Source: a plasmid
Direction: 5' to 3' (one strand)
DNA length: 64,000 nt
Sequence record: NZ_CP024444.1
Shown: positions 1,106 to 34,519 of the stretch, piece after piece
How positions within the stretch are numbered: the first letter of the stretch is position 1
How the letters are laid out: every line of letters starts with the position of its first letter
Translations under genes and position numbers: made by a program
The notes under the pieces: model-generated
The model's input: only the letters and a program-made list of their open reading frames with translations
The model's database searches: none
What the model was told of the DNA's origin: nothing

Positions 1106-1133
1106 AATTTCTTATCCTAGAACAATCATAAGT

Positions 1134-5478: not shown

Positions 5479-5479
5479 A

Positions 5480-9512: not shown

Positions 9513-9531
9513 GAGTTTATCTCCCTATTTC

Positions 9532-10362: not shown

Positions 10363-10435
10363 ATCGTTTTCCTTATTACAAAAAAGTTGTGATCTCCCTT
10401 TATTTTTAGAGAGGTCTTGTTTGTCGTTAAAATGA

Positions 10436-11770: not shown

Positions 11771-11801
11771 GACCTCAGTTTTTCAAGTTTAATAAAGAGA
11801 A

Positions 11802-12380: not shown

Positions 12381-12455
12381 TTTACTTTCCTTAAGATGAA
12401 TTGATCGACATGGTGTGAAATTCACACCATGGATTTTTAATATGAGATTAGTTAA

Positions 12456-13577
<1,122 letters not shown>

Positions 13578-13623
13578 TTAGACCAAATGTAGTTTTTGGC
13601 ACCGAACATCAAGTCGGTGCTGA

Positions 13624-13899
13624 TTAACGAAGATACGATCTAACGATAGAAATAGTTTCGTCAATTGACTTTCTTTGAGAGTTAGTTCTAGTTTCATTAT
13701 CTGGAAATTCTTCTCGCAAATAACTTTCTAGTACAACCGCCATTAAACCATTTACAGCCCCACGGACTGCGGCTAGCTGATGAAGAATTACACCACACTC
13801 AGTACCTTCATCAAGTGCCTGCTCAAGAGCAGCGACTTGTCCTTTGATACGTCTAACACGAGTAAGCGCTTGTTTCTTCTCACGATCATTGTATGGCAT
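13624..13899 (-). CDS. frmR: FrmR-type formaldehyde-responsive repressor (CsoR/RcnR family)
   Basis: 91 aa reading ...RVRRIKGQVAALEQALDEGTECGVILHQLAAVRGAVNGL, the CsoR/RcnR/FrmR helix bundle. It is the first gene of the operon. Confidence 0.85.
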   Translation of the reverse strand: MPYNDREKKQALTRVRRIKGQVAALEQALDEGTECGVILHQLAAVRGAVNGLMAVVLESYLREEFPDNETRTNSQRKSIDETISIVRSYLR

Positions 13900-14109
13900 A
13901 TATTCAACCTTCTCTCATTTAGATTTAGTCATCATACTATACTCTCTTATCGTTAAACTCATAATACTATACCCCCCCATGGTATAAAAGGGGTAAATTA
14001 AAAATAATTAATATTTTTTGAAGAAAATTATCTTTTAGTTATACTATTGCTTTGCATAATTAATTTAATATTATTAAAAATCAGTAATTTAGTAAAAAAA
14101 TATTAAAAA

Positions 14110-15359: not shown

Positions 15360-15628
15360 AAAATATATTTTTTAAAAAAAAGAAAATTTATATTAAATAT
15401 TCTTATATTAACACTTCTGTATATCAAATTATCTTTTAGCAAAAACACGCTTAAAAAATAAATAAATTAAATCAATAATTTATGTTAAAGTAAAAAAAAC
15501 CTAGTAATCAAACCGATTGTTAGAAAAGAATATTTCAATTGTTTAAATTAAAATCAATTAAAATAAAACCATGATACAAATTAATCTATCGAATTTACTT
15601 AATCATTTTCTTTTTAACTAGTATGCAT

Positions 15629-17200
15629 TCAACTTGAATAATTCTTCATAAACAAATTAAAATCCATGACTTGCTGCTGCTCTAACACTTCTTGCTCAAG
15701 AAGAGACTTTTGTGCAACTGATTCAAAAAATTGTTTACGCTCATCCGTCAAAACCTGTTTCGAAAAGTTATTCAAATGTTGCTGGCATTGATGTAAAGCG
15801 AAGTCATTAAAACCTATATTATGTTGAAACATATATGTTAAGACCTTAGAGGATGGCGTTAAGAATGAATTCTCAATTTTAGCCTGTTGAGCATATATAG
15901 CTTCTTTATGTTTATTAATATCATTTGCATGATCGAGTAAATTAGCTAGAGGTCTAATATTAGCCAACAACTCTTGAGCCCAATCATACATAGCAATTGA
16001 ACTATCTCCATTTTGGAGTTCTAAATTTGGCTTTCGCCCCTTTTCAGCCACAAGGTGAAAGTTATTATTCGCCTGATTAAGGCTATCTTGACTTAATGAT
16101 GGGCTTTTATATAAAGCACAAAATAATAAAAATGCATCCAAAAAGTAAGCTTGCTCTAAATCAATTCCTAACGAAGAAAAAGGATTAATGTCCAAACAAC
16201 GTATCTCGACATACTGTACCCCACGTGCATTTAATGCATGAAGCACACGCTCACCAGAATATGGAACTCGTTTTGGTCTAATATTTGAATAATATTCATT
16301 TTCTATTTGCAAAATATTAGTATTAAGTTGCACCCATTCGTTATTTTTATGGGTACCAATATTCGTATACAAGGGGTAAGGTGTTTCTAAAGCCTCTTTT
16401 ATACTATGAATGTATGAATTGAGACTATCAAAACAAGGAGAGATAGTAGATTGTGCACTACTTTGATAACCAATCTTACTCATTCGAAGACTAGTCGCAT
16501 AAGGCAAGTAGTAAGTGTCATTATCAAATTTTTTAAATTGATCTAAGTTTTTTTTTAAAAAATTTGAATTAACCGCTGGGGATGCTCCGAATAGATAAAT
16601 CAATAGCCAACTATAACGGTGAAAATTTCGTATCATATCCATATAAATTGATGACCGATCTTTATTTTCGAAAGTAGTTATATTATCTAGTTGGTATAAA
16701 AGCTGAATTAATTGCTCAGGTAATGAAAAATTATAGTGAATACCTGCTATACATTGCATGGCCCTACCATATCGAAGAGCTAATCCTTTTCGATAAACGT
16801 GTTTAAACTTACCAATATTTGAATTGCCATACTCAGCTATAGGAATCCTTTCTTCTTCTGGCAAAAGAGAAGGCATTGATGAACTCCAAAGGTATTCATT
16901 ATTTAGTTTTGTATAAACAAAACGATGAATATCATTAAGTTCTGCAAGGACCTCTGAAGCACTCAAACAAGGTGGCGTAACAAATTCCATTAATGATTCG
17001 GAATAGTCTGTAGTAATAAACTCATTTGTCAAAGCTGATCCTAGTGTTTTTGGATGCGGTGTAAGCACCAAATTCCCATTCTTCGTTACACGCAAACATT
17101 CACGTTCTATCCCTCGCAAACACATAGTCAATAAAGGTAAATTTTCACCTAGAATATTTAGACGATGAGTATAGTGTTCATCAAATATTAATTTATCCAT
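15629..17200 (-). CDS. gshA: glutamate--cysteine ligase (proteobacterial GshA type)
   Basis: 523 aa. The motif ERECLRV...HPKTLGSALTNEFITTDYSESLMEFVTPP matches the GshA N-terminus. It sits in an AT-rich island with atypical codon usage. Confidence 0.85.
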   Translation of the reverse strand: MDKLIFDEHYTHRLNILGENLPLLTMCLRGIERECLRVTKNGNLVLTPHPKTLGSALTNEFITTDYSESLMEFVTPPCLSASEVLAELNDIHRFVYTKLNNEYLWSSSMPSLLPEEERIPIAEYGNSNIGKFKHVYRKGLALRYGRAMQCIAGIHYNFSLPEQLIQLLYQLDNITTFENKDRSSIYMDMIRNFHRYSWLLIYLFGASPAVNSNFLKKNLDQFKKFDNDTYYLPYATSLRMSKIGYQSSAQSTISPCFDSLNSYIHSIKEALETPYPLYTNIGTHKNNEWVQLNTNILQIENEYYSNIRPKRVPYSGERVLHALNARGVQYVEIRCLDINPFSSLGIDLEQAYFLDAFLLFCALYKSPSLSQDSLNQANNNFHLVAEKGRKPNLELQNGDSSIAMYDWAQELLANIRPLANLLDHANDINKHKEAIYAQQAKIENSFLTPSSKVLTYMFQHNIGFNDFALHQCQQHLNNFSKQVLTDERKQFFESVAQKSLLEQEVLEQQQVMDFNLFMKNYSS

Positions 17201-17222
17201 ATATCAAACCTTACATTCAAAG

Positions 17223-17993
17223 TTAATGTGCACCATGAACTACCCTATTAATTAAAGTTACTATAAGAATTCCTATAAAAAGCCAAAGAATTTGGATAAT
17301 GGTATCTTTAGTTGTCCAACGCTGTTGTAATTGAGGAATTAGATCTGATAAAGACACATAAATAAAACTACTACTAGCCAAAATCATAAGGAAAGGTTGC
17401 CATTGCTGTAATCCGGCCAGTAGAAAATATCCACTTAATCCACCTAAAGCTGTCATTGCACCAGCCATAGTAAGCTTTAGTACAGCAGCACTACGATGAT
17501 TTTTCTGCCTAAGAACTACCAAATCACCCATATGATGAGGTACTTCATGTACAAGAACCGAAGCAGCTGCAATCAGCCCAAGATGTATGTCAACAATGAA
17601 AATTGAAGCAATCAAAATACCATCACCAAAACAATGGACTCCATCACCCAATAATAGTGACCAACCATTAGTTGTATGTGGCTCATGTGAATGATTATGC
17701 TCATGTCCGTGATGCCACAATTCAGCTTTATTAAGTAGAAAAAAGAAAACTAAACCAATTAGAAGTGCTAAAAAAAGTTGATGTGTATCTATATTGCTTT
17801 CAAAAGCCTCTGGTAACAAATGTGTAAAACTTGTTGCTAATAACGCACCAGCTGCTAGACCTAAAAAGCCTTGTTGTACATAACTATCTTGATTGTTAAT
17901 AGCTGCCCCAGCTCTCGTTACCAATAAGTCTGCGATCAAAACGCTACCTATTCCTACGACCAGAGTGACTAGGGTAATAATGAAAAGTGACAT
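17223..17993 (-). CDS. zupT: ZIP-family divalent metal transporter (ZupT-like)
   Basis: 256 aa and polytopic, with a His-rich loop (HGHEHNHSHEPH) and the ZIP signature HEVPHHMGD. Confidence 0.7.
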   Translation of the reverse strand: MSLFIITLVTLVVGIGSVLIADLLVTRAGAAINNQDSYVQQGFLGLAAGALLATSFTHLLPEAFESNIDTHQLFLALLIGLVFFFLLNKAELWHHGHEHNHSHEPHTTNGWSLLLGDGVHCFGDGILIASIFIVDIHLGLIAAASVLVHEVPHHMGDLVVLRQKNHRSAAVLKLTMAGAMTALGGLSGYFLLAGLQQWQPFLMILASSSFIYVSLSDLIPQLQQRWTTKDTIIQILWLFIGILIVTLINRVVHGAH

Positions 17994-18308
17994 AGATTTA
18001 ATACATACCTAGTAGACAATCATTTTTAACTAATCGCATATACAAGCCGAAATTCGTTCGATACAACATCAAATTTGTAGATGTTGTATTAAGCAATCTA
18101 ATATACTATACCCACCTATAGTATAAAAGGGATTTTATAAAAAAGTTTAAGCCACTCAACAATTAATAGGAAATTATTTTAAATTCAATTAAATAGATAC
18201 AAAAATCATGACATTCTTAATCAAATCTAGTCTATTGAGAAATTTTTATTTTTTACATTATACAAAAGAGCCTAAACAAAGGCCCTTTCATCACTATTCT
18301 CTGAGCTC

Positions 18309-18416
18309 TTAGTATGCTAATTGAATTAAGAATCTAAAAATTCCTGCAATAACCGCTAATGTAACTACACCAATTACCCAAAGTAAGATAAACCATCCTG
18401 TCTGTGAAAGTTTCAT
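18309..18416 (-). CDS. cydX: cytochrome bd oxidase small subunit CydX-like peptide (35 aa)
   Basis: This ORF is not in the track. ATG at 18414-18416, stop at 18309-18311, peptide MKLSQTGWFILLWVIGVVTLAVIAGIFRFLIQLAY with a single transmembrane helix. It lies 8 nt downstream of cydB on the same strand. Confidence 0.5.
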   Translation of the reverse strand: MKLSQTGWFILLWVIGVVTLAVIAGIFRFLIQLAY

Positions 18417-18424
18417 ACAAACTC

Positions 18425-19429
18425 CTAATGATAACCAGCATCACCAACACGAACTTTACCTTTAAAAATCCAATATGAAAAAATGGTATAAGTCAGAATA
18501 ATAGGAATGAGCAACAGTGCACCAATCAAAGCAAAAAGTTGACTATTCGCTGGGGCTGCAGCCTGCCAGATCGTTACTGAAGGTGGAATAATATAAGGCC
18601 ACAAACTAATTAAAAAACCTGTATAAGCAAGGAAGACTAAGCCTAACGTATAAATAAAAGGACTAAGTTCTTTCTTTTGTTTACATGCCCGTAAAGCCAT
18701 TCCCGTAAAAATAAGTACTAATACAGGAATTGGACTAAAGTACATTAACTGAGGCTGACTAAACCAGCGTTCAGCAATTTGCGGTTGTGAAAGTGGTGTA
18801 TAGATAGTAACTAATCCAAAAATAATAAATACTGAAATGATCAGTTTAGGCATCATTGAAAACATTTTTTCTTGAATTTCAGCATCAGTTTTATAAATTA
18901 ACCATCCACATCCTAAAGTTGCATACAGAACGACTACACCAATACCAGTAAACACAGAGAAAGGTGTCAACCAGTCCAACTGCCCACCAGCATAAACACC
19001 ATTTAAGGTTTTAATACCCTGAATATATGCACCTAGAACTACACCTTGAAGAAAACCTGCAAATACTGAACCACTAATAAAAGCTTTATCCCACAGATGC
19101 TTAGTACGGTTTGCTTTAAATCGGAATTCAAAAGCAACTCCACGAAATATTAATGCGATCACCATCAAAATAATCGGCATATAAAGTGCAGAAAGAACTG
19201 TTGAATAAACTAGCGGAAAGGCAGCAAAAAGCCCCGCCCCACCAAGCACCATCCAAGTTTCATTACCATCCCAGACCGGAGCAACGGTATTCATTAGCAC
19301 ATCTCGCTCATTGGAACCTTTAATGAAAGGAAATAAAATTCCGATACCTAAGTCAAACCCATCTAGAATGACATAAATCAATACACCAATTCCAATAATG
19401 ACAATCCAAATAAGAGATAAATCAATCAT
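18425..19429 (-). CDS. cydB: cytochrome bd ubiquinol oxidase subunit II
   Basis: 334 aa and polytopic, with CydB/CioB-type sequence. It overlaps the cydA remnant by 8 nt. Confidence 0.85.
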   Translation of the reverse strand: MIDLSLIWIVIIGIGVLIYVILDGFDLGIGILFPFIKGSNERDVLMNTVAPVWDGNETWMVLGGAGLFAAFPLVYSTVLSALYMPIILMVIALIFRGVAFEFRFKANRTKHLWDKAFISGSVFAGFLQGVVLGAYIQGIKTLNGVYAGGQLDWLTPFSVFTGIGVVVLYATLGCGWLIYKTDAEIQEKMFSMMPKLIISVFIIFGLVTIYTPLSQPQIAERWFSQPQLMYFSPIPVLVLIFTGMALRACKQKKELSPFIYTLGLVFLAYTGFLISLWPYIIPPSVTIWQAAAPANSQLFALIGALLLIPIILTYTIFSYWIFKGKVRVGDAGYH

Positions 19430-19898
19430 GGCGATTCTCCCGTATTGATTCTAGTTTATCTAAGCTTCCTTCAACCGCACTCATTGGTCGCATCGGTGTT
19501 TGACCAACATCAGCATGTTCGCCTGAATGTACACTTAAGAATTGCGGGCCTTTATGCATTAGCTTTAACATGTAATAAATGCCAATACCGAAAACTACAA
19601 AATAAACCAGAACAAAAATAATTAGAGTTATTCCAACTTGCGATGCGGATACGGGTGACAACGCATCTTTAGTACGAAGTACATTGTAAACAACCCAAGG
19701 TTGACGACCGACCTCTGTTGTAAACCAACCAGCTAGAAGAGCGATAAAACCTGACGGACCCATATATAATGCAAAACGTTGAAACCATTTACTTTCATAT
19801 AAACGGTCAGAACGACGCAGCCATAAGCCTAAGACGGCTAATAGCAGCATTAACATTCCCATACCAACCATGACACGGAAACTCCAAAAGATGATCAA
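19422..19898 (-). pseudogene. cydA: cytochrome bd oxidase subunit I, C-terminal fragment only (truncated by IS3-family insertion)
   Basis: The 158-aa ORF matches only the C-terminal helices of CydA. The N-terminal roughly 350 codons are missing, and an IS3-family left inverted repeat begins 20 bp upstream. Confidence 0.7.
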
Positions 19899-20011
19899 AG
19901 AATTCGGCCGATCTTCTGAACCGTCCTAGTTTTATCAGAGACAGGTTTACTTGAGTCAGGCAGCATAGCCTGACGGAATTAATGAACAATAGTACATATT
20001 TTCTGCATCTA

Positions 20012-21007
20012 CTACGAGCATAGCTCTCCGTCTTGCACTCGGGCGAAGCAGTGCTTCGCTAATCCTCGTTCAGGCGATACATATCCATTGGTAGAATGCA
20101 ATCGTTCATAGTTGTACCAGTGTACCCAATCAAGGGTTGCTAGCGCAACATCATTTACGCCATCCCATTCCTGTTTCAAATAATCAATCACCTCCGCTTT
20201 ATATAGCCCATTCACGCTTTCAGCTAGGGCATTATCTGAGCGAGGAAATAGCGAAGCACTGCTTCGCCCGGGTGCAAGACGTAGGGCTATGCCCGAAGTG
20301 GAGTCACCAGTTGTACCAACCGATGCAGCAAGCCCCGATTGTTTAAGCCGTTCACCGTACTTAATCGATAGATACTGACTACCTTTATCAGAATGATGAA
20401 TTACCCCGCTTGGTCTACCTCTAGCGTCTAAGGCTTGATTTAGGGCATCTAAGACCAGCTGAGTGTCCATATGATTCGATACTTTCCAACCCACAATAAC
20501 TCGCTTAAATACGTCAATCACAAAGGCAGTATAGACCCAACCTGATTTAGTTTTAATGTAGGTAAAATCAGCGACCTGAGGAGCACTGCTCCGCAAGAGT
20601 CTTTTCTTGTTTGGGGCATCGGCAGTAAAGTTGCGTTTAACAAGGTCATTCGGCTTGTCTTGGTCGTCTCTCTGCTTCGTGGTGATTTTGCCTTTGCCTC
20701 GCCATACGCCTTGTATGCCAAGCTGTTTCATTAAGCGTTCAACGGTGCAACGAGCAAGCTTTGGCAAACCCTCTTGTTTGAGCTTGTGCCAAACTTTACG
20801 AATGCCATAGCGACAGCCACTGGCTTGCCAAATCTGTTTGATTTGTGCCATGAGGTGTTTGTCGCTTTGTTTGCGTCGACTTTGCTTTTCTGGGTTGTCT
20901 TGTTCATCTTTGATGCGATAGTAGGTGGATGGGGCAATTGGCAGGATTTTGCAAATCGGCTCGACCCCATATTTTTCTTTTTCATCATCAATGAATTTGA
21001 CCATCAC
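20012..21007 (-). CDS. IS3-family transposase OrfB (DDE integrase core), possibly disrupted
   Basis: 331 aa with a DDE/rve core (HSDKGSQY...). The C-terminal region carries two inverted copies of a 30-bp palindrome-containing element at 20028-20058 and 20249-20280, which lengthen and alter the conserved end. Confidence 0.6.
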   Translation of the reverse strand: MMVKFIDDEKEKYGVEPICKILPIAPSTYYRIKDEQDNPEKQSRRKQSDKHLMAQIKQIWQASGCRYGIRKVWHKLKQEGLPKLARCTVERLMKQLGIQGVWRGKGKITTKQRDDQDKPNDLVKRNFTADAPNKKRLLRSSAPQVADFTYIKTKSGWVYTAFVIDVFKRVIVGWKVSNHMDTQLVLDALNQALDARGRPSGVIHHSDKGSQYLSIKYGERLKQSGLAASVGTTGDSTSGIALRLAPGRSSASLFPRSDNALAESVNGLYKAEVIDYLKQEWDGVNDVALATLDWVHWYNYERLHSTNGYVSPERGLAKHCFARVQDGELCS

Positions 21008-21321
21008 TTGGGTTTGCGGTCGAGCTCCGCCTGGGCTTCAATACCGGCTGCCTTGCGAATGATTTCGTTCGCTTGTTTGAGTTCTCTGATTTCTCGCTCA
21101 AGCTCAGCGATACGAGCCGCTTGGCTTTCAGTGCTTATAGTCACAGGATTTTGCTTAGCTAGGTGCTTTTGATGCCATGAGCGTAGGGTTTCAGGGGTAC
21201 ACCCGAATTTGGGGGCGATGGCTTGGATGGCCGCCCACAGTGAGGGATAATCTTTTTGTGATTCAATCAGTAATTCGACGGCTCTACTCTTAACTTCTGT
21301 TGGGTATTGTTTGCTTTTCAT
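21004..21321 (-). CDS. IS3-family transposase OrfA (HTH)
   Basis: 105 aa with an HTH domain and a leucine-zipper-like C-terminus, overlapping orfB. Confidence 0.7.
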   Translation of the reverse strand: MKSKQYPTEVKSRAVELLIESQKDYPSLWAAIQAIAPKFGCTPETLRSWHQKHLAKQNPVTISTESQAARIAELEREIRELKQANEIIRKAAGIEAQAELDRKPK

Positions 21322-21728
21322 AAGGGTATTGTCTCAGAGTTTTAGGTCTCCGACAATCCCGGGACGGTTCACTTTTGGTCGTCAAGTTTTAAAAGACTTA
21401 GTTTGTAAAAGCTCATTATTAGGAGATTTAGCTCTAAAGAAGAAAGTACATGAACACTTATTTAAGTTTTTAGAAAATACTATTAATTCTCTTTATAATC
21501 CAGATGCATATAAAGATAGTAGAATCGATATGGTATTTAAGGAAAAAGGCTTTACAATACGTAACAATATTTTAAGTTCAGATGTAAGACAAGATTTTAA
21601 TAAAAAAAATTTTTCTGACCCAATTCACAAAATTTTTAAAGATATTGGAATTTTTTAAAGTTATAGATGCAACTCTAACCTTATAACTTTAATTGTATAA
21701 GGTTAGTAGATAGCGCATTATATATTTA

Positions 21729-22710
21729 ACCCCACTCTCAACACTTTTAGAGGGGGTTGAAACAAAAAAGGCATGAACTTAAACTTTAATCAATGACCAA
21801 AAAGATTAGAGGATAAGCCATGCCCATTGATGAATTTATCATTAAAATCTATCTAATGGTAGATGACTACTACAAAAAGATTGTAACAAACCGGCTAAGA
21901 CAAGGCGGATATGCACCAAAGCTAACCGACAGTGAAATTATCACCATGGAGATAGTGGGTGAGTTTTTACAGATGGACACCGATTCACAAATCCATCAGT
22001 ATTTTAAACAGCATTGGCAAACATGGTTTCCACAAATAGGCTCATATCCCAACTTTGCCAAGCAGTGCGTCAATTTGTTACAGGTAAAAACTTTGATACA
22101 ACAGCATATCGTTAAACAGCATGGGCAAGACAACATTCATTTTATTGATGGCTTTCCCATTCCGGTGTGTCAATATGCCAGAGCCTATCGGCATAAAACC
22201 TTCGAATATGAAGGTAGCTATAGTTACTGTGCCTCAAAGCAACAAAAATATTTTGGCTTTGAAGGACATTTACTCATTAATCTATCGGGCATGATAACCA
22301 ATTTTACCTTTGCCTCTGCTAAGATAGATGAAAGGCTTGTTGCACCTGATATGCTTGATAATATCAAAGGCTTGTTAGGTGCAGATATGGGCTATATTAG
22401 CCCTGATTTATCTGAGTATTGCTTTAAGCGATGTGTTGATTTGCAAACACCGCTTAGAAAAAATATGCCCGATAAACGACCAATCAGTGTACTTAATCGT
22501 CTTAAAAATTCTCGTCGCAATATTGAGACGGTGATTGGTCAGTTATCACAGCGGTTTAATATGCAAAAGGTGAGAGCGAGAGATTTATGGCATTTATCCC
22601 ACAGATTTATGCGTAAAATCTTGGCTCATAACGTTTGCTTTGTGATCAATAAACAGTTAGGTAATCCCCCACTTCAGTTTGAGTTGCTTATTTCAAGTTG
22701 AGAGTGGGGT
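21729..22710 (+). mobile_element. IS982-family insertion sequence, copy 2 (direct orientation relative to copy 1)
   Basis: It has the same inverted repeats (ACCCCACTCTCAAC ... GTTGAGAGTGGGGT) and transposase as copy 1. Confidence 0.75.
21820..22701 (+). CDS. IS982-family DDE transposase
   Basis: 293 aa and near-identical to the transposase at 4588-5469. Confidence 0.75.
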   Translation: MPIDEFIIKIYLMVDDYYKKIVTNRLRQGGYAPKLTDSEIITMEIVGEFLQMDTDSQIHQYFKQHWQTWFPQIGSYPNFAKQCVNLLQVKTLIQQHIVKQHGQDNIHFIDGFPIPVCQYARAYRHKTFEYEGSYSYCASKQQKYFGFEGHLLINLSGMITNFTFASAKIDERLVAPDMLDNIKGLLGADMGYISPDLSEYCFKRCVDLQTPLRKNMPDKRPISVLNRLKNSRRNIETVIGQLSQRFNMQKVRARDLWHLSHRFMRKILAHNVCFVINKQLGNPPLQFELLISS

Positions 22711-22906
22711 ATTAAATAGAAAAAATAAAGAAACTCTAAAATATTGGTAAAATTAAAAACCTAAACCTAGTCTTTCATCTTTATTACCAAAACAACCCAC
22801 ATCTAATTATTATCCAAACCCCATATATCACGTCATGCAATCGCTAAAATTTGGTTTGGTCTAATGGCTAATGTGATTAATTTATAGAGGCTTTTTTAAA
22901 TTTATT

Positions 22907-23550
22907 TACGCTCAAATCGGTTTTTATACGTTATTTGCCATTTTCTTACGCTCAAATCGGTTTTTATACGTTATTTGCCATTTTCTTACGCTCAAATCGG
23001 TTTTTATACGTTATTTGCCATTTTCTTACGCTCAAACCCATTTTTATACGTTATTTGCCGTTTTCTTACGCTCAAACCCATTTTTATACGTTATTTGCCG
23101 TTTTCTTACGCTCAAACCCATTTTTATACGTTATTTACCATTTTCTTACGCTCAAACCCATTTTTATACGTTATTTACCATTTTCTTACGCTCAAACCCA
23201 TTTTTATACGTTATTTGCCATTTTCTTACGCTCAAACCCATTTTTATACGTTATTTACCATTTTCTTACGCTCAAACCCATTTTTATACGTTATTTGCCA
23301 TTTTCTTACGCTCAAACCCATTTTTATACGTTATTTACCATTTTCTTACGCTCAAACCCATTTTTATACGTTATTTGCCATTTTCTTACGCTCAAACCCA
23401 TTTTTATACGTTATTTGCCGTTTTCTTACGCTCAAACCCATTTTTATACGTTATTTGCCATTTTCTTACGCTCAAATCGGTTTTTATACGTTATTTACCG
23501 TTTTCTTACGCTCAAACCCATTTTTATACGTTATTTGCCGTTTTCTTACG
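22907..23550. repeat. tandem array of about 16 copies of a 40-bp repeat (TTACGCTCAAAYCSRTTTTTATACGTTATTTRCCRTTTTC)
   Basis: Direct reading shows perfect head-to-tail 40-bp periodicity with a few variant positions (ATCGG/ACCCA, GCCA/GCCG/ACCA) and no intervening unique sequence. The three long ORFs in the track here are artefacts of translating the repeat. Confidence 0.9.
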
Positions 23551-24021
23551 TTCTTGAAGGACTTAATCATATCTCTATATTTTCATCCAAGTTTTCATGT
23601 ATCTTGGCGTTGAATTCGCTTAAAGGAAGTTTTCTGTTTCTAGCTTATGAAGTTCTCGCCTTTCTTACCAAAACATACTGAATTTTTTTATTAATAGCTA
23701 ATGTCAGATGCGCTCTAAGCTCGATGGTTGGGCAATCTTCACTTGAAATGTCATTAATGCTTTTTAAAATTTCAGTTTTTTAAAAATAGGTTCTGACAAT
23801 AACTGCTTCATCCCAAAAATTTAATAAGAATTTCTTGAGTAACGGGAGATAGACAATTTTTTATCACGGTTTGCGCCGCTTCTGCCCTATATGTAATGCC
23901 CTATATTTAACTTTTGAAATAGCGATAGCTTGATTTAGGTTTTGTCCAGCCAAAAACCGCAGGACTTTTATTCTGTCGCCTTATGGCGACAACGATTCGG
24001 GTTTTTGGGCTGTTGGGCTAA

Positions 24022-24731: not shown

Positions 24732-25049
24732 TTACTGGTAGTAATTGTAGCAATCGCCAAGCAGTTTCATAAAGTCGTCACGACGGTTTTCCATTTCGGT
24801 TTCCACATCGTCAAATTTACCATCTTCGTTACATTCTTCATCCACGTAAAGGCTCACATCATCATCTAACATCAGGTAGCGTAAACCCTCAATGACAATG
24901 AAGTTACCTATGGCACGTACTGGGTAGCCATAGTGTACCCATGATGCAGTGAATTGTTCGGTGTCGCTGTCAAAACTGATATTTGGGCTAACCTTAAGAA
25001 TATCGTTAACAACTTCTTGGGCTTTGGTGTTATTGGTAGTGGTAGTCAT
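24732..25049 (-). CDS. small acidic hypothetical protein
   Basis: 105 aa and highly acidic (D/E-rich). The conserved module lies upstream at 25050-25200. Confidence 0.5.
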   Translation of the reverse strand: MTTTTNNTKAQEVVNDILKVSPNISFDSDTEQFTASWVHYGYPVRAIGNFIVIEGLRYLMLDDDVSLYVDEECNEDGKFDDVETEMENRRDDFMKLLGDCYNYYQ

Positions 25050-25210
25050 AATTTCGTTCCTTGTGGTTGGTATGGTTTCGAGCCTTTCTCGTTTCCATGT
25101 GCTTATTATGACGGTTTAACCGTTTATAGTCAAGCGGTTTAACCGTGTTTTACCCATTTTCCGACGAACGGTAAAACCGTTTTCGACCACATTTCAGACA
25201 TTTATCCCTC

Positions 25211-25500
25211 TATTTAAAAAACCATGACCACGGCTTTTGGTGGTAATGGTTGCAATCTTTTCAGGCAATCATTCCCACGGCTTTTGGTGGGTATGAGGCC
25301 CTCTTGTCTTAGCTCGGATAGTCAAGGCTGGCAAGTATGAAATGCAGGCAATCGCCTACGGATCATGCGGCTTGATGACTTATCGCGTTAGCAGGAAGTC
25401 AGTAAGACCATGAAGCCGTCAGCGAGTGACAAGAGTAATACTGCCAAGACTGACGTTGCTGGCGTCTTTTTGCCAGCAATCCGCCAAAGTCTTTATCAGT
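25211..25500. repeat. 290-bp GC-rich repeated element, copy 1 (candidate structured ssDNA/RNA element)
   Basis: It is about 97% identical to 27968-28258, non-coding, and contains internal direct repeats (CACCAAAAGCCGTGG twice) and the hairpin GCTGGCgtctttttGCCAGC. Confidence 0.6.
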
Positions 25501-25524
25501 TAAAAAACTAACCTTTGCGCAAAT

Positions 25525-26001
25525 TTATGAATTATCTAAAGTAGCTTTATTGGCTAATAACCGAATTAAATCTTTTAACTCATAATCTTTGTGAGCAATA
25601 GCACCAACCTTAATTAACCCATTCTCAATATGGTATAAATCATAAACAATAGCGTCTGATACCAAAACGGGTTGTTCATCAGGTACATTAATATCAATTA
25701 ATCGGATAACAGGTTCGCTATCATCATCCACGCCAGCCGAACCAAAACGTTCTGCACTCACAATAAAAGAAACATCGAAACCATCTAGCCAAAGTTCAAA
25801 TAAAAGACTTGCCGGGATATCACGACTACCTTTTTCATAATTGGCATACGTGGATTGGGCAATCGCTAATCGCTCATAAACAGATTTAGCCGTATAACCT
25901 AACCTTAACCGTTCTTGCTTTAATCGCTCACCGATAAACTTGAACGGATATTTTTTAAATTCAGCATCAATCTTTGCCATAAGTTGTTCTTGGGGGTTCA
26001 T
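25525..26001 (-). CDS. XRE-family (Cro/CI-type HTH) transcriptional regulator
   Basis: 158 aa with an N-terminal HTH (IGERLKQERLRLGYTAKSVYERLAIAQSTYANYEKG). Its own upstream region lacks the conserved promoter module but keeps the TAGCGATAGCTTGATATAG motif. Confidence 0.65.
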   Translation of the reverse strand: MNPQEQLMAKIDAEFKKYPFKFIGERLKQERLRLGYTAKSVYERLAIAQSTYANYEKGSRDIPASLLFELWLDGFDVSFIVSAERFGSAGVDDDSEPVIRLIDINVPDEQPVLVSDAIVYDLYHIENGLIKVGAIAHKDYELKDLIRLLANKATLDNS

Positions 26002-26153
26002 GAGTAAATCCTATGTACCAGTATAAGTATAGTCATATAAAATGCATTAAATATAGCCATTTGACCACATGTTGTCTATCACAACGATAGCATCCATAAG
26101 TAACATTTGTATTAGCGATAGCTTGATATAGTCCATCACGCCAAATTTTTGGA

Positions 26154-26193
26154 AAAAAACCCAACCAATTTTTTGGCTGGGCGTTGGGTTTGA
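26154..26193 (-). terminator. rho-independent terminator after unit 26247-26609
   Basis: On the minus strand a GC stem (CCCAACGCCCAGCC...GGTTGGG) is followed by a T7 run. Confidence 0.5.
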
Positions 26194-26246
26194 CTGGGTG
26201 ACTGGACGACCAACCTTACCGCATTGGGTAAGGTGGTTTTGCGTGA

Positions 26247-26609
26247 TTATAAAGCAAAGTCTTCGTCTTTGTTTTCGTCTTCAGTGTCTTCCGAGCGATA
26301 GGCTAGACGTAACTGCTGGAAGTAGTTAACCGTATCATAGCCCATACTATCGCGTGACTCACCAAGTACGATGACTTCCATGTAAGCGTCGTGAGCGTCT
26401 TTTGGCAGCTCTTCTTTGATGGTATCAGCTAACCAAAACAGCATAGCGTTATGGTAGCAACCTTCACATACCAAACCTAGACAGTGTGAGCCATACATGC
26501 CACGTCCTGAATACGTGCGAATACGGATATCACCAAAGTCTGACTCAAAGCGTTCTTTGCGTTTTACTAGGGCATCAAATAGTTGGTTGGTTAATTCTTC
26601 AGTAATCAT
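26247..26609 (-). CDS. hypothetical protein (Cys-containing, acidic C-terminus)
   Basis: 120 aa with the conserved module upstream (26620-26760) and a terminator downstream. Confidence 0.5.
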   Translation of the reverse strand: MITEELTNQLFDALVKRKERFESDFGDIRIRTYSGRGMYGSHCLGLVCEGCYHNAMLFWLADTIKEELPKDAHDAYMEVIVLGESRDSMGYDTVNYFQQLRLAYRSEDTEDENKDEDFAL

Positions 26610-26902
26610 AATCTCGTTCCTTTTGGTTGGGTGATGGTAGCGAGCCTATCTCGTTTCCATGTGCTTATAATAACGCTTTAACCGTGTATAATCAAGCGGT
26701 TTTAGCGTTTATTTAAGGGTTTTCCGACGAACGGTAAAACCGTTTATTTCGCAGTTTGCCGGGCGAACACCCCTATAATTGATGGCTTTTCATCTTTGTA
26801 TTAGCGATAACTTGATATAGTGCATCACGCCCACCCAACCGATGGCGATGCATGGACGAAAAAACCTAGTCACTTCTGACTAGGCTTTATGCATCCGGCT
26901 TG

Positions 26903-27799
26903 TTAAGCGGCTATGGGTTGTTTCTTCTGCGACCAATTTTCTAAGATGTAATTAACTGCTTTTTGGGCGTCCGCTGAAGCTTTGAAGATGGCGCGTTTGT
27001 CAGCTTTTAGCACTTGTAACCATGATTTTAAATAGCTTGCATGGTTGGTTAGTGTGGTTTCTAAGCATCCCATTTCAGCGCATAAAAAGCTTGCGCCTAG
27101 TTCTGCTACAAGTTCCTCCCGAGCGTATGCGGTATCACCGAATTTTTTACCGTATTGGCGGTTTAATCGTTTTTCTGCACCCGTGCTGTGGACTAGCTCA
27201 TGTCCAAGCGTCGCAAACTGTTCATCTAGGTTTACAAAGTCGCTTGCATTCGGCATGCATATCGTATCGATGTAGGGTTTATAACAAGCTGAATTGTAAC
27301 CGTATTCAATTTTTACGTCGGTATTTGCAAAGATGGTTTTTGCGGTTTCATTCTCTGCAATGGGTGTTAACGTTTCGTCTTCATCAGGGGTGATTGCGCT
27401 AATATCGCCATCCATTTGGCTAATGTTAAACACACAAAAACTATTTAAAAATGGGATGGTTTCGATGTCACCCTCTTTGTTTTCTTTCTCAATGACATTG
27501 TAATATGCTAGGCGTACCGATTTTGCACCTTTTTTAACCTGTAAGTTTTTGGCTTGGGCTTGCTTGTAGGTCATCCATACATTGTATTTATAATCGCTGT
27601 TAATCATGGCTTTGGCTAAGATTAGACGATTAACGCCTTTGTAGAGTTCACCTGTTGAGCCATTGACGCCACCGAAAATGTTGGTAACCGGACGGGTTTT
27701 CCAGCCTTTTTTCCATTGTGGTAAATCAGTTTCAAGAAGTTCAATCATTGCATTGGTTACTTCTTGGTACATATCGATTTTAGTAGCTGATTTTGTCAT
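26903..27799 (-). CDS. ardC: ArdC-like antirestriction protein (N-terminal ssDNA-binding domain plus zincin-like metalloprotease domain)
   Basis: N-terminus MTKSATKIDMYQEVTNAMIELLETDLPQWKKGW and the HExxH motif (LGHELVHSTGAE) match ArdC. The true start is the ATG at 27797-27799, which follows an AAAAGGA RBS. The ORF track extends upstream through the leader. Confidence 0.8.
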   Translation of the reverse strand: MTKSATKIDMYQEVTNAMIELLETDLPQWKKGWKTRPVTNIFGGVNGSTGELYKGVNRLILAKAMINSDYKYNVWMTYKQAQAKNLQVKKGAKSVRLAYYNVIEKENKEGDIETIPFLNSFCVFNISQMDGDISAITPDEDETLTPIAENETAKTIFANTDVKIEYGYNSACYKPYIDTICMPNASDFVNLDEQFATLGHELVHSTGAEKRLNRQYGKKFGDTAYAREELVAELGASFLCAEMGCLETTLTNHASYLKSWLQVLKADKRAIFKASADAQKAVNYILENWSQKKQPIAA

Positions 27800-27967
27800 G
27801 ATGTCGTTTCCTTTTGGTTGGGTGTTGGAATTGAGCCTATCTCGTTTCCATGTGTTTATAATAACGGTTTTAGCGTGTATAGTCAAGCGGTTTAACCGTG
27901 TATTTTATGCATTTTCCGACGAACGGTAAAACCGTGTATCTTCAGATGCCGGACACACAACCCAATA

Positions 27968-28258
27968 ATTAACAACCATGACCACGGCTTTTGGTGGTGA
28001 TGGTTGCAAGCTTTTCAGGCAATCATTCCCACGGCTTTTGGTGGGTATGAGGCCCTCTTGTCTTAGCTCGGATAGTCAAGGCTGGCAAGTATGAAACGCA
28101 GGCAATCGCCTACGGATCATGCGGCTTGATGACTTATCGCGTTAGCAGGAAGTCAGCAAGACCATGAAGCCGTCAGCGAGTGACAAGAGTAATACTGCCA
28201 AGACTGACGTTGCTGGCGTCTTTTTGCCAGCAATCCGCCAAAGTCTTTATCAGTTTAA
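27968..28258. repeat. 290-bp GC-rich repeated element, copy 2
   Basis: Near-identical to 25211-25500. It is followed by about 700 bp without a convincing ORF (28260-28945). Confidence 0.6.
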
Positions 28259-28901
28259 TCACCACGGCTTACCAACTAACCAATAACACCAACTAACCTA
28301 ACATCTTGCCCATCCATAAAATCCACATCAGCCTAAAACACCACAATAGACACCACCATGGCAAAACCTTATGCTAGAACCATAATAGCCTCTACTGCAT
28401 TAAGTATATATGCACTAACAAAGGTGACTTACCGGGTAACCACTTATGGCTAGTACATCACGCCAATATCAACCTATCATCGATACCAAACTCACCAAGC
28501 TTGGGCTAAAAAGTCAGGTAAACCAGTTCATTAAACTAACTGCCATAATCATGGTAATGCCAACAGTGATAGCAAATTATCTCGTCACACTGCTAACTAT
28601 TCATAAAAAAGCGAATCGATTAAGACTGCAGGCGCAATTGCCGATACCGACGTTAAAGCAGGCTTATCTTCTGCTTATCAAAGCAAACGACGTGTAAACC
28701 TGACAAGGTCTTAACCGTACTATAAAAGCACCTAAATAGCCTACCTGACTAAAGCCGTTGTATGGGGGTATCTATAAGTAACGGCTACGAGCAATAGATT
28801 ATCCAATCAATGCCTAAGCCAGTTAACTTCCACTTTGTTTTAGCGATAACTTGATGTAGGCTGCCAAACCACACGCCAGTCTTGCCATTAACCGCTGCCC
28901 A

Positions 28902-28928
28902 TAAAAAACCCTAGTGCGATGACTAGGG
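28902..28928 (-). terminator. rho-independent terminator after unit 28948-29334
   Basis: On the minus strand CCCTAGTCATCGCACTAGGG is followed by TTTTTT. Confidence 0.55.
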
Positions 28929-28947
28929 CTATTGGGTGGTAAGTGGG

Positions 28948-34113: not shown

Positions 34114-34230
34114 TTATTTTTTAAGCACGCGTTTAACACTGGGGGCGACTTTGCGTTGAGCCGTTCCCAAATAGCGATACATCATTAAAGACAATGGGTA
34201 AATAAAAGCACTGATTTGTAAAAAATTCAT
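34114..34230 (-). CDS. 38-aa hydrophobic peptide (MNFLQISAFIYPLSLMMYRYLGTAQRKVAPSVKRVLKK)
   Basis: Not in the ORF track. An ATG follows the conserved module and AAAAGGA RBS, and the peptide has a single transmembrane-like segment. Confidence 0.4.
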   Translation of the reverse strand: MNFLQISAFIYPLSLMMYRYLGTAQRKVAPSVKRVLKK

Positions 34231-34519
34231 GGCCGTTCCTTTTGGTTGGGTGATGGTAGCAAGCCTATCTCGCTGTCCATGTAGTTATAATAACGCTTTA
34301 ACCGTGTATAATCAAGCGGTTTAACCGTGTTTTTACCCATTTTCCGATAAACGGTAAAAGCGTTTTTCGGGTCGGCTGACACGTTTCCCTACAATTTACT
34401 ATCCTTGTACTAGCTATGGCTTGATGTAGATCAGCTCGCCTGCCTAACGCCTGCCAAAATCGGTACAAAAAAAGCCACAATACGATGATTGTAGCTTTGG
34501 GTGGGTGGGCGTGATGCGA

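Follow-up and report, generated by a model that had tools for sequence, protein, structure and literature searches.

The repeated element lies in a 64,000-nt stretch of megaplasmid DNA (the whole of which is called the window here) that matches the 248-kb Moraxella osloensis plasmid pMOXF1, within an anti-defence gene array with about 40 copies of one promoter-operator-leader module. Since all of the array genes are on the − strand, copy 1 is located downstream of the gene for an XRE-family protein and copy 2 upstream of ardC (Table 1). The first-pass annotation had put the copies after the XRE gene and after ardC; the former placement stands, with copy 1 beginning 20 nt past the XRE stop codon, whereas the latter does not. 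The element directly follows the XRE gene in every arrangement seen, and the XRE protein forms a single 90% cluster among 5.8 billion proteins. As had been proposed, the array looks like a plasmid leading region, with ArdC, SSB and pentapeptide-repeat proteins encoded by genes that all point in the same direction. The plasmid encodes a type IV coupling protein, two SSBs and ArdC; no relaxase or oriT was found on it.

The roughly 700 bp to the right of copy 2, initially described as apparently non-coding, is not wholly free of open reading frames: 28259-28947 (689 bp) holds an 83-aa + strand ORF (28446-28697), annotated as hypothetical in pMOXF1. This ORF is doubtful as a real gene, since all four of its differences from pMOXF1 (4/4) are non-synonymous and no relative was found outside this plasmid lineage. 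In a scan for promoter-like sites, none was detected inside the element on either strand. The + strand site beside copy 2 (Table 1) is no evidence by itself, because 12 such sites were found against 11.1 expected; its flank is conserved in the isolates L019 and L020 and in pMOXF1, and the corresponding place beside copy 1 has only TTCAGA-16-TAAAAA.

Table 1 Features in and around the two copies of the element (positions in the window).
Feature	Position	Strand	Description
105-aa gene with module	24732..25183	−	no Pfam family; unit downstream of copy 1
Element copy 1, 288 nt	25217..25504		XRE stop codon (25525) on one side, promoter module of the 105-aa gene on the other
XRE-family HTH gene, 158 aa	25525..26001	−	HTH_3
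XRE gene's own promoter	26050..26078	−	TAGACA-17-TATATT, 10/12; not the array module, palindromes differ
ardC, 298 aa	26903..27799	−	ArdcN + MPTase-PolyVal; downstream of copy 2
ardC promoter module and leader	27800..27936	−	operators, TTGACT-17-TATTAT, leader ending CACCCAACCAAAAGGAA; between copy 2 and ardC
Promoter-like site	27941..27969	+	TTCAGA-17-AATAAT, 9/12; predicted start at the first bases of copy 2
Element copy 2, 288 nt	27971..28258		directly upstream (gene sense) of the ardC promoter module
Hairpin 1	27973..28006 (copy 1: 25219-25252)		12-pair stem, loop GGCTTTTG; homologous to the array leader
Hairpin 2	28018..28054 (copy 1: 25264-25300)		47-nt tandem paralogue of hairpin 1, apex identical
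Branched central domain	28055..28189 (copy 1: 25301-25435)		contains ATAGTCAAG, the reverse complement of the module −35 box CTTGACTAT
3′ hairpin, 61 nt	28194..28254 (copy 1: 25440-25500)		−22.9 kcal/mol, z −4.4; right arm holds TTGCCA-18-TATCAG
Region from copy 2 to the next D6 box, 575 bp	28259..28833		no − strand ORF; doubtful 83-aa + strand ORF; − strand promoter-like site 28826-28798

The element is a direct repeat of 288 nt, the copies of which are 97.9% identical (six mismatches, no gaps) and start 2754 nt apart. The two near-identical copies first reported (about 97%, 25211-25500 and 27968-28258) were thus borne out, with limits 3-6 nt off. Their description as the only long non-coding repeats of the array besides the promoter modules is also essentially right: the remaining long repeats in the whole window are promoter modules, a 40-bp tandem array, two IS copies and one 79% paralogous pair (54284/54960). 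The copies are GC-richer than their surroundings, as claimed (0.479 and 0.497, against 0.417 for the array), and equally without an ORF, with stop codons abounding in all six frames. The small + strand ORFs that do occur are disrupted in other isolates by a 1-nt insertion or a 47-nt deletion. The repeat boundaries are sharp and lie at the base of the first and of the last hairpin, which are the limits of the folded domain; the repeat takes in neither a flanking promoter nor a U-tract.

Both strands of copy 2 fold far better than dinucleotide shuffles as RNA and as DNA (minimum free energy z −5.1 to −6.0), confirming a stable secondary structure beyond chance, and adjustment for GC against 443 windows from the same 64 kb leaves z scores of −2.0 to −3.1. 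In a 300-nt ssDNA scan of the + strand, the copies ranked second and third among 3185 windows, and first and second within the array, at −57.6 kcal/mol (copy 1; z −3.9 within the array) and −63.5 kcal/mol (copy 2; z −4.8), against an array mean of −33 kcal/mol (sd 6.3). The internal direct repeats and hairpins noted at first reading are real: each copy contains a 47-nt tandem duplication that gives two hairpins sharing the apex CCACGGCTTTTGGTGG, which has four exact copies in the window when 0.46 matches would be expected even at up to three mismatches. A branched central domain and a 3′ hairpin follow, and the element folds into five separate hairpins. Relative to hairpin 1, two pairs of hairpin 2 are changed on both sides (C-G to T-A and A-T to C-G), and a 47-nt deletion fuses the two in pMOXF1 copy b and in copy 1 of the isolate L056. 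The element is real, non-coding and unusually structured.

The structure shows some preference for one strand. The central domain carries four C/T polymorphisms, all within stems and all opposite G, so that pairing survives on the + strand and is lost on the − strand (4 to 0), whereas C/T and G/A differences outside the element are balanced (257 to 288; p about 0.05 for the stem bias). Whichever structure is taken, its + strand version is the more stable one by 2-12 kcal/mol, and the + strand folds 5-7 kcal/mol better as ssDNA, among the most extreme 2-6% of windows. The evidence from the few polymorphisms, together with that from the folding energies, leans weakly towards the + strand.

The element is confined to the pMOXF1 lineage, at one or two copies per plasmid. 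It is absent from the remaining 200 kb of pMOXF1, which was its sole blastn match in PLSDB, and was not found beyond the same locus in PLSDB, phage records, GTDB representative genomes, IMG/VR or JGI metagenomes. The order XRE-element is kept in all arrangements, including a single-copy form, XRE-element-ardC, that occurs in three samples and is spanned by an unbranched Logan contig. Because the element diverges between isolates at about the same rate as neighbouring DNA (1.4-3.1% versus about 2%), there is no sign of strong constraint. Lineage-specific states are common to both copies of one plasmid, indicating concerted evolution; the 47-nt unit is freely gained and lost among isolates, with one-hairpin variants persisting, and recombination of the promoter modules is frequent, as can be seen from the gene order in L019.

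Both hairpin 1 (at about 25/33 positions) and hairpin 2 can be aligned with the array leader, with an inverted copy of the upstream 12 nt in place of the Shine-Dalgarno GGAA. The −35 box of the module, ATAGTCAAG, comes after the leader homology, in the same order as in the module. To judge from these alignments, the two 5′ hairpins descend from the conserved leader/RBS of the array. A 12-nt inverted duplication would have made the leader a hairpin, which a 47-nt tandem duplication would then have doubled. It is possible, though no strong claim is made, that the element as a whole is a young, lineage-specific non-coding module remodelled from the array's own leader and promoter module. The CUP repeats of IncN plasmids are repressor-controlled repeated promoters that constitute an establishment regulon. 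The array belongs with regulons of this kind, such as EGeRS2 with Reg576 of p576 (PMC6294495). Compared with such promoter modules, the element has lost the −10 box, operators and Shine-Dalgarno sequence, and its leader and −35 box parts descend from such a module.

Our best guess for the function, offered tentatively, is a cis-acting terminator/insulator on the gene (−) strand, like EGeRS1 of pLS20. On this strand, hairpin 1 (−13.2 and −17.7 kcal/mol) is followed by UUUUUUAAAU in copy 1 or UUGUUAAUUAUU in copy 2, and its inner stem was flagged as terminator-like in a terminator scan. Five canonical terminators of the array span −13 to −24 kcal/mol, a range that includes both values; hairpin 1 with its U-tract is a predicted intrinsic terminator with energies like those of the array. 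Standard cassettes each close with their own terminator, followed by a D6 box. In the 20 nt between the XRE stop codon and the element no terminator was found, leaving hairpin 1 as the only one of the XRE cassette. On its left, each copy is flanked by sequence homologous to the standard spacer, and the element plus its cassette fits exactly between spacer and D6 box; by this layout, the element takes the position where standard cassettes carry a terminator.

The element would then be the structured 3′ end of two cassettes lacking a repressor-controlled array promoter, namely that of XRE and the ORF-less one to the right of copy 2. Hairpin 1 and the U-tract would terminate their transcripts, shielding the tightly repressed downstream genes, ardC and the 105-aa gene, from read-through. 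This presumes that the XRE and 28826 promoters are active, that termination takes place at hairpin 1 and that insulation is the selected function; the other 240 nt may stabilise or process the 3′ end rather than play some other role.

EGeRS1 of pLS20 has 51% GC against 38% for its plasmid, precedes ardC and contains many inverted repeats and no promoter; experiments showed that it blocks read-through in its native orientation only (Val-Calvo et al. 2021, PMC8708921). Like EGeRS1, known from pLS20-family conjugative plasmids, the present element is GC-richer, non-coding and multi-hairpin, lacks a constitutive promoter and occurs in several copies in an establishment region, before ardC; the one-orientation block, experimental for EGeRS1, is here predicted from hairpin 1 and the U-tract. 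The two have no sequence similarity, the blastn search of PLSDB having matched pMOXF1 alone, and differ in length (288 nt versus 420-750 nt), copy number (1-2 versus 4-5) and host (Gram-negative Moraxella versus Bacillus). EGeRS1 abuts the RBS and replaces the promoter, whereas a complete repressor-controlled sigma-70 module separates our element from ardC. Our element also resembles intrinsic terminators, structured 3′ UTRs and 3′UTR-derived small RNAs in starting 20 nt past a stop codon and in having a stem with a U-tract end. Several observations speak against termination. Hairpin 1 and its tail amount to just ~45 nt, and 288 nt, six times the length of a terminator, far exceeds what one needs. 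Stem polymorphisms and folding energies point to the + strand, not to that of the genes. Copy 2 has a poor U-tract and follows no gene to terminate, with only a 9/12 promoter-like site upstream, and divergence of the element about equals that of its surroundings.

The + strand bias is also consistent with a single-stranded DNA signal, a reading that we regard as rather doubtful, in which the element would fold as the transferred strand enters the recipient and support ssi priming or early transcription. It assumes that the array is the leading region and that the + strand, also the gene template, is the transferred strand. Synthesis from the element would proceed leftwards through the ardC module and ardC, so the repressor-controlled ardC promoter would be the first to become double-stranded and thus active. 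On the + strand, which is also the gene template and the one strand where the stem polymorphisms keep G-T pairing, the copies have the most stable ssDNA folds of the array. Both lie within about 4.5 kb of the array end towards which the genes point, each directly upstream of a promoter module, and the repeat limits coincide with the folded domain to the exclusion of any flanking promoter or U-tract. The coupling protein, SSBs and ArdC of the plasmid fit as well, and two direct copies 2.75 kb apart recall Frpo1 and Frpo2 of the F plasmid, which are 92% identical and 5 kb apart (PMC9849209). Frpo/ssi elements share with ours the length (~300 nt), the non-coding, GC-richer composition, the occurrence as near-identical direct repeats separated by a few kb within a leading-type region, a position upstream of anti-restriction/SSB-type genes on their template strand and the best ssDNA fold of the region.

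The more specific proposal of the first-pass annotation, an ssi site or Frpo-like ssDNA promoter, was not supported by the tests applied. The element has no similarity to five reference Frpo/ssi sequences, and the Frpo profile matches nothing anywhere in the window. The references fold with 52-121 pairs across the midpoint (span 225-318 nt, −94 to −102 kcal/mol), whereas the element has 9-27 midpoint-spanning pairs at −57 to −64 kcal/mol, or −0.20 to −0.22 versus −0.27 to −0.31 kcal/mol per nt, and five short hairpins instead of one ~150 bp stem-loop. As for the suggested extended hairpin with a promoter in its stem, the fold offers one right-arm pair, TTGCCA-18-TATCAG, which misses the −7 T and is no convincing rebuilt −35/−10; a normal dsDNA promoter lies between element and gene. 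These points weigh on the broader ssDNA reading too. The mining of ssDNA promoters in pESBL and F used a threshold of −75 kcal/mol per 300 nt (PMC12672017), of which both copies fall short, though the plasmid is much AT-richer than F. In addition, with neither oriT nor relaxase found, the transferred strand is assumed from gene orientation, and the analogous element of pLS20 lies on the strand unable to serve as template (PMC8708921). Related arrays have no comparable fold outlier in front of ardC, and a transcript begun in the 3′ hairpin would reach the hairpin 1 terminator before ardC.

A functionless fossil is an unlikely reading. The element would then be what is left of a deleted cassette (leader, −35 box and unrelated DNA); template-switch mutation would have produced its hairpins, and after a recent copying event inside the array gene conversion would have kept the two copies alike. 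The leader and −35 homology in module order, the confinement to one narrow plasmid lineage, the divergence like that of neighbouring DNA, the states shared by both copies, the free gain and loss of the 47-nt unit and the frequent recombination of promoter modules all agree with this. Against it stand a fold of z about −6 that ranks top in the array, the both-sided pair changes between hairpins 1 and 2, the 4-to-0 excess of wobble-compatible polymorphisms, the sharp boundaries at the hairpin feet and the retention of the site beside XRE and ardC in all arrangements.

A structured RNA had also been suggested. No family was matched in an Rfam scan, but there are strand-specific signals on both strands, and the element may be such an RNA. 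In its most definite form, which we consider quite unlikely, this would be an 'anti-leader' RNA, a small RNA of the + strand that starts at the left boundary of the repeat and displays CUUUUGG(U)GG at the apex of two loops. As this sequence is antisense to CCCAACCAAAAGGA, the leader/RBS conserved among the array mRNAs, the RNA would lower the translation of the ~40 array genes, or of some of them, once the entry burst is over. A + strand RNA is complementary to the leader, of which hairpins 1 and 2 are same-strand homologues. The 92-nt hairpin region forms duplexes with 39 array leaders at a median of −26.9 kcal/mol, whereas the − strand gives −17.0, shuffled leaders −21.9 and non-array leaders −20.3 (Mann-Whitney p = 2e-5). 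The − strand has 38 occurrences of CCAAAAG and the + strand 7, and the part of the leader around the RBS lacks structure. YUNR-type UUUG is a feature of antisense-RNA recognition loops, and the loop GGCUUUUG contains it. The promoter-like site beside copy 2 would place the start at its first bases, and the polymorphism and energy bias favours the + strand. However, descent alone accounts for the complementarity, and the net gain after hairpin opening is small (median −5.9 kcal/mol, −4.7 for the ardC leader), reaching −8 or below for 6/25 leaders and −10 to −20 kcal/mol for just three or four (34245, 26626, 31624, 60630). The + strand has no credible terminator, the alternative in the 3′ hairpin (GACGTTGCTGGCGTC, then T5) giving just −5.3 kcal/mol; the copy 1 promoter is poor, such matches occur at chance frequency, and the would-be promoter flanks lie outside the conserved repeat, of which one-hairpin variants persist. 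FinP, CopA and Sok are plasmid antisense RNAs with recognition loops. The element shares with them stem-loops in which the apical loop is the complement of an RBS region, here two in tandem, and descent from the target; unlike them, it would be a trans-acting RNA with many imperfect targets and little net energy gain, and it has no clear terminator or promoter.

Insertion of a MITE or PATE twice into array spacers, another earlier alternative, is very improbable: there are at most two copies per 248-kb plasmid and none in the rest of pMOXF1 or, beyond the same locus, in the databases; the ends are only weakly similar as an inverted repeat (12/18) and not clean terminal inverted repeats, and they do not resemble IS200/IS605 ends, because the hairpins at the two ends differ from each other. 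The plasmid does carry TnpB and IS elements, and the A-rich 9-mer TTAAAAAAC on both sides of copy 1 resembles a target-site duplication, with the copy 2 flanks TTAACAACC and TTAATCACC matching at 7/9 positions, but the left 'duplication' belongs to the conserved standard spacer.

The pair of near-identical, GC-rich and non-coding copies described in the first-pass annotation is a genuine direct repeat of 288 nt, with 6 mismatches and no gaps. The GC contents of the copies (0.479 and 0.497) exceed those of the array (0.417) and of the window (0.405), and the internal direct repeats and hairpins reported with them are present as a 47-nt tandem pair and five hairpins. The element is also without an ORF, as had been stated: there is no open frame and its small ORFs are broken in other isolates, on which grounds protein coding was rejected. 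Folding, proposed at that stage as a check, gave minimum free energy (MFE) z-scores of -5.1 to -6.0 against dinucleotide shuffles for both strands, as RNA and as DNA, and less extreme values (-2.0 to -3.1) against the window's own GC-adjusted background. When the array was scanned as ssDNA in 300-nt windows, the two copies were the best + strand folds (z -3.9 and -4.8). Inspection of the element by eye matched no sigma-54 promoter, DnaA box or IS200/IS605-type ends.

Copy 1 starts 20 nt past the XRE gene, as had been noted, and is followed by the module of a 105-aa gene. The placement of copy 2 "after ardC" does not hold in the sense of transcription, since this copy precedes the ardC module. 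The stretch to its right had been called non-coding, which is true of the - strand (no ORF for ~540 nt), but the + strand carries an 83-aa ORF whose reality is doubtful. The possibility that this 575-bp stretch is a decayed XRE paralogue was rejected for want of any tblastn or blastn similarity. Directly right of copy 2 lies a strongly C/A-rich stretch, at the start of which the hairpin motif recurs a third time, in partial form (CACCACGGCTTACC).

Positions of the element, its parts and the neighbouring array signals
Feature	Position	Strand	Description
Element, copy 1	25217-25504		
Element, copy 2	27971-28258		
Hairpin 1 (copy 2)	27973-28006		
Hairpin 2 (copy 2)	28018-28054		47-nt tandem paralogue of hairpin 1; common apex CCACGGCTTTTGGTGG
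Branched central domain (copy 2)	28055-28189		
3' hairpin (copy 2)	28194-28254		61 nt
C/A-rich stretch	28259-28345	+	~90 nt; GC skew -0.46
XRE	25525-26105 (gene 25525-26001)	-	158 aa
XRE promoter	26078-26050	-	
Promoter-like site upstream of copy 2	28826-28798	-	9/12
Promoter-like site beside copy 2	27941-27969	+	9/12
Module of 105-aa gene	25050-25183	-	
Module of ardC	27800-27936	-	137 nt, complete promoter-operator-leader
Array module		-	order, right of each gene: D6 box, conserved spacer, operators and promoter, leader
Module operators		-	three palindromes ACGGTTnAACCGT around TTGACT-17-TATTAT
Module leader		-	~55 nt; 3' end CACCCAACCAAAAGGAA
Intrinsic terminator		-	one per array gene, downstream of the gene

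The window is ~97-99% identical to the 248-kb Moraxella osloensis plasmid pMOXF1 (CP040258.1), in which the array spans ~44 kb (pMOXF1 203-248 kb). From ~24.0 kb to >62 kb of the window, all of the ~40 array genes lie on the - strand and nearly all are monocistronic. The only products with known domains are ArdC, SSB and four pentapeptide-repeat proteins, the remaining proteins being without assignment. ArdC has its closest relatives (45-53% identity) in Psychrobacter and metagenomes, where they belong to arrays of like design with SSB, ArdA, KlcA and PcfJ, the modules of which are not homologous to those found here. Taken as a whole, the array has the look of a leading or establishment region of a plasmid, controlled by one shared repressor. 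XRE alone among the array genes has another promoter and other palindromes (CTATCGTTGTGATAG), and its protein family forms one 90%-identity cluster among 5.8 billion proteins. Because it lacks the array operator, XRE is probably not the array repressor.

A search of other replicons, also proposed earlier, returned pMOXF1 as the sole match among the 72,556 plasmids of PLSDB (blastn, word size 11). No match was obtained in phage records (blastn), no further copy in the remaining 200 kb of pMOXF1 (nhmmer/blastn), and no copy in the related arrays reached through the ArdC relatives of 45-53% identity (nhmmer, blastn). Pattern scans of the GTDB representative genomes and IMG/VR gave 8 and 23 matches, respectively, all of them unrelated tandem repeats or chance 16-mers, and the single matching contig in JGI metagenomes was the same locus. 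ENA and Logan contigs, reached via the flanking proteins, yielded 15 element copies, all at least 97% identical, and neither the XRE protein nor the 83-aa ORF had relatives beyond this plasmid lineage. The element appears to be confined to one lineage and to be young. In three samples (contigs L019-L021) the arrangement is single-copy, XRE-element-ardC, which is real rather than an assembly collapse because one Logan contig spans it unbranched. Comparison of these contigs with window 25045-28255 shows frequent recombination at the modules; L019 runs on past XRE-element-ardC into a different gene (window 48186-48893). The two direct copies bracket a 2.75-kb unit (ardC, a 120-aa gene and XRE) that could be excisable or amplifiable.

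The proposal that the element is an Frpo/ssi-like ssDNA element was evaluated against five reference sequences (ColIb Frpo1-3, F ssiD and ssiE) from the supplement of Samuel et al. 2024 (PMC11541004), who used a BLAST cut-off of E <= 1e-6. With blastn at word size 7, the best matches between the element and these references were 8-17 nt long with E >= 2.6, and an nhmmer profile of four Frpo sequences found no match in the 64-kb window. Each reference, taken as ssDNA, gives one long stem-loop of -94 to -102 kcal/mol with a maximum span of 225-318 nt, in which 52-121 pairs bridge the midpoint. The extended hairpin anticipated for the element is absent: its ssDNA forms five hairpins (5-6 hairpin loops), with 9-27 midpoint-spanning pairs, a maximum span of 89-134 nt and -57 to -62 kcal/mol. 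ssDNA promoters in pESBL and F have been mined with a criterion of below -75 kcal/mol per 300 nt (PMC12672017), a threshold set for much GC-richer enterobacterial plasmids; the minima of the two copies are -63.5 and -57.6 kcal/mol and no array window passes -75. A consensus promoter scan listed none inside the element, and the sole promoter-like pair on a right-hand arm is a weak TTGCCA-18-TATCAG in the 3' hairpin, with the -35 partly in the loop and the -10 lacking the -7 T. The element thus falls outside the Frpo/ssi class 1 ssDNA promoters in sequence similarity, in the single stem-loop and in the -75 kcal/mol threshold, and its assignment to the Frpo kind is not supported. What remains of the idea is the location, with copy 2 standing before ardC on the strand that serves the array genes as template, the two direct copies, as in Frpo1/Frpo2 of F, the top ssDNA rank on the template strand, and the + strand bias. 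No comparable ssDNA outliers were found in front of ardC in the related arrays; weaker ssDNA folds (z ~-3), the most stable ones of those loci, occur in their longest ORF-free gaps (contigs L010 11501-12655 and L012 2934-3639). These may be non-coding counterparts of the element, to which they show no similarity in sequence. The Rfam models, suggested for the alternative of a small structured RNA, gave no match in the element at gathering thresholds (best E-values 6-9.4, far below gathering scores).

The reading that we rank first, albeit tentatively, is that the element is a cis-acting terminator and insulator, a function suggested by its gene-strand sequence and by analogy with EGeRS1 of pLS20. 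On the - strand, hairpin 1 with its tail folds at -13.2 kcal/mol with UUUUUUAAAU in copy 1 and at -17.7 kcal/mol with UUGUUAAUUAUU, a weaker tail, in copy 2, within the range of the array's own terminators (-13 to -24 kcal/mol), and has the form of an intrinsic terminator, in that a U-tract comes directly after a stable, GC-containing stem-loop where the unit ends. Since XRE has no terminator of its own, the element is predicted to end the XRE transcript. Upstream of copy 2 lie a D6 box, a promoter-like site and ~540 nt without a - strand ORF. The element would accordingly form the 3' end of XRE-type cassettes, terminating and insulating them in the manner of EGeRS1. Termination and insulation is the only function readable directly from the sequence and has experimental precedent, but it offers no account of the other 240 nt or of the + strand bias.

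EGeRS1 is the closest described analogue of the element. It is GC-richer than its plasmid (51% vs 38%), has many inverted repeats, is multi-copy and lies in front of ardC; it contains no promoter and blocks read-through in its native orientation only, and its authors rejected a role as an ssDNA promoter because the transferred strand there is the non-template strand (PMC8708921). The element resembles it in a GC content above that of array and window, several inverted repeats and a complex predicted structure (five hairpins, z ~-6). A similar one-way block is predicted here from sequence, with hairpin 1 and the U-tract on the - strand and a terminator-like hairpin of just -5.3 kcal/mol on the + strand. 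EGeRS1 elements share >60% sequence identity with EGeRS1 of pLS20; judged by the PLSDB blastn search, in which the element recovers pMOXF1 only, it shows no such similarity. In addition, EGeRS1 sits directly upstream of the RBS of establishment operons, in the place of the promoter, whereas the element does not: a complete module separates copy 2 from ardC, and another separates copy 1 from the 105-aa gene.

Three weak but agreeing lines point to the + strand. The four polymorphic positions within stems are all C/T opposite G, so that every stem variant still pairs on the + strand (99.6% of cells paired, 4 one-sided changes), whereas on the - strand the same polymorphisms are A-C mismatches, regardless of the strand from which the MFE structure is taken. 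Beyond the element, C/T and G/A changes are balanced (257 to 288), so a ratio of 4 to 0 has p ~0.05. As RNA, any one structure has an energy 2-12 kcal/mol lower on the + strand, and as ssDNA the + strand folds better by 5.0 and 6.8 kcal/mol, among the most extreme 2-6% of windows. The energies and the polymorphism pattern hint at the folded + strand as the functional form, in which case the element might represent a new class of multi-hairpin single-strand signal in the transferred DNA of Moraxellaceae megaplasmids, unrelated to Frpo, a possibility we hold with considerable reserve. A folded + strand ssDNA signal for priming or early transcription in front of ardC, which we consider possible though rather unlikely, would account for where the element lies, its occurrence in two copies, its ssDNA rank and the strand bias; the architectural tests failed, however, and the identity of the transferred strand is an assumption. 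Under this reading, the element directly upstream of ardC would seed priming or early transcription, and the repressor-controlled anti-restriction promoter would become double-stranded and active before the remaining plasmid.

A weak self-match revealed an alignment, on the gene strand, between hairpin 1 (GCTTGCAACCATCACC--ACCAAAAG) and the leader of the array (GCTCGCTACCATCACCCAACCAAAAG). The leader's Shine-Dalgarno GGAA and start region are replaced in hairpin 1 by GCCGTGGTCATGGTT, an inverted copy of the preceding 12 nt that closes a near-perfect hairpin. Further into the element comes ATAGTCAAG, a match to the -35 box of the module that keeps the module's order. To the left of each copy, the flank shares homology with the standard spacer as far as its GGCTTTT run, just before the D6 box. 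By these homologies the element is in part a remodelled module; together with its cassette it occupies the site of "terminator plus D6 box" in the standard units. It clearly illustrates how a structured element can arise through duplication of an mRNA leader. Between hairpins 1 and 2, two pairs are changed on both sides (C-G to T-A and A-T to C-G), which fits selection for the stem, although template-switch mutation in quasi-palindromes could be the source of the same pattern. No two-sided pair changes occur among the 11 full-length copies, and covariation analysis is impossible because the divergence is so small. The 47-nt unit has been lost independently in pMOXF1 copy 2 and in copy 1 of contig L056, each time leaving one hybrid hairpin that still pairs. 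Lineage-specific states common to both copies of one plasmid indicate gene conversion between them, and the element may simply be a fossil kept alike by this process, which we regard as unlikely.

A variant of the + strand reading, that an anti-leader small RNA tunes the 40-gene anti-defence regulon via the common RBS, seems doubtful to us and less probable than a fossil. A + strand RNA would be antisense to the shared leader, with a median duplex energy of -26.9 kcal/mol over 39 array leaders vs -17 to -22 in controls (calculated from short-segment duplexes and cofolding, as whole-length RNAduplex of 288 nt gave unrealistically long duplexes), and the - strand carries 38 occurrences of the target motif CCAAAAG, at which the leader is open. 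Against this, the net pairing after the cost of hairpin opening is small (median -5.9 kcal/mol; -8 or better in 6 of 25 leaders; -4.7 for ardC), no credible + strand terminator was found, the only terminator-like hairpin there being the one of -5.3 kcal/mol, and the sole + strand promoter-like site, beside copy 2, occurs at chance frequency, copy 1 having a weaker one. The last alternative raised earlier, a MITE, is highly improbable, as the element has no more than 2 copies, invariably at one type of locus, and no clean terminal inverted repeats (12 of 18 end positions match, with gaps), while the 9-mer direct repeat flanks copy 1 alone and overlaps the conserved spacer.

Our ranking, from most to least likely, is a terminator/insulator, an ssDNA signal, a fossil, an anti-leader small RNA and a MITE. 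No single reading covers everything, and more than one may hold at once: the element could act as a terminator on the - strand and also have a function on the + strand. No described family includes the element. In kind it joins Frpo/ssi and EGeRS1 among the structured, non-coding repeats found in plasmid establishment regions, as a new, sequence-unrelated variant in a megaplasmid; it is a Gram-negative counterpart of these repeats, before ardC, in an exceptionally regular array. Plasmid leading regions decide the survival of an incoming plasmid against the defences of the recipient. To our knowledge, early on/off switching of leading-region genes is known for few systems, namely Frpo (F, ColIb), Reg576 (p576) and EGeRS1 (pLS20). 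A strand-specific insulator would show how an unregulated regulator cassette is embedded in a silenced regulon, and a folded ssDNA or anti-leader RNA would add a new mechanism of early control; the general importance is limited by the confinement to one plasmid lineage, without comparative support.

Regarding transfer, MOB-suite types pMOXF1 as non-mobilizable, and no relaxase, nic or oriT was identified in it. A type IV coupling protein of 981 aa with TraG-D_C and TrwB_AAD_bind domains is encoded at pMOXF1 95293-98238 (45293-48238 in contig L028); Pfam searches of 16 large pMOXF1 proteins found this protein and no relaxase. Many large proteins without Pfam matches surround it (76-116 kb and 156-188 kb), and together they may constitute a divergent transfer system. 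In the window, at least 22 head-to-tail 40-bp units (~91% alike; 22760-23659) are located between the final gene of the array and an operon of ParM/StbA type (833-4284). They look like a centromere or iteron set, and occupy the array end toward which all genes point, the expected place of oriT. An IS-bounded accessory segment missing from pMOXF1 (4300-22700) carries UvrA-like, NDH-2, esterase, ADH, gshA, ZIP and cytochrome bd genes, IS copies that are 96% alike (4497-4796 and 21729-22028), an ALIL frameshift pseudoknot (20930-21046) and 54-nt inverted repeats (20008-20302) that form the most stable fold of the whole window. The array itself is interrupted by a TnpB gene (368 aa, - strand; 62143-63600), and a 300-nt stretch at ~63281-63580, which could be an IS200/IS605 end or omega-RNA region, has a very stable ssDNA fold on both strands (-55 and -58 kcal/mol). 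A two-copy repeat of 79% identity (54284-54583 and 54960-55259), covering terminator, module and gene start, probably marks a pair of paralogous cassettes. Finally, a hydrophobic mini-ORF of 38 aa on the - strand (34115-34231; MNFLQISAFIYPLSLMMYRYLG...), called as a gene in contigs L056 and L057, has its own full promoter module, the leader of which shows the strongest predicted pairing with the + strand of the element (net -19.6 kcal/mol).
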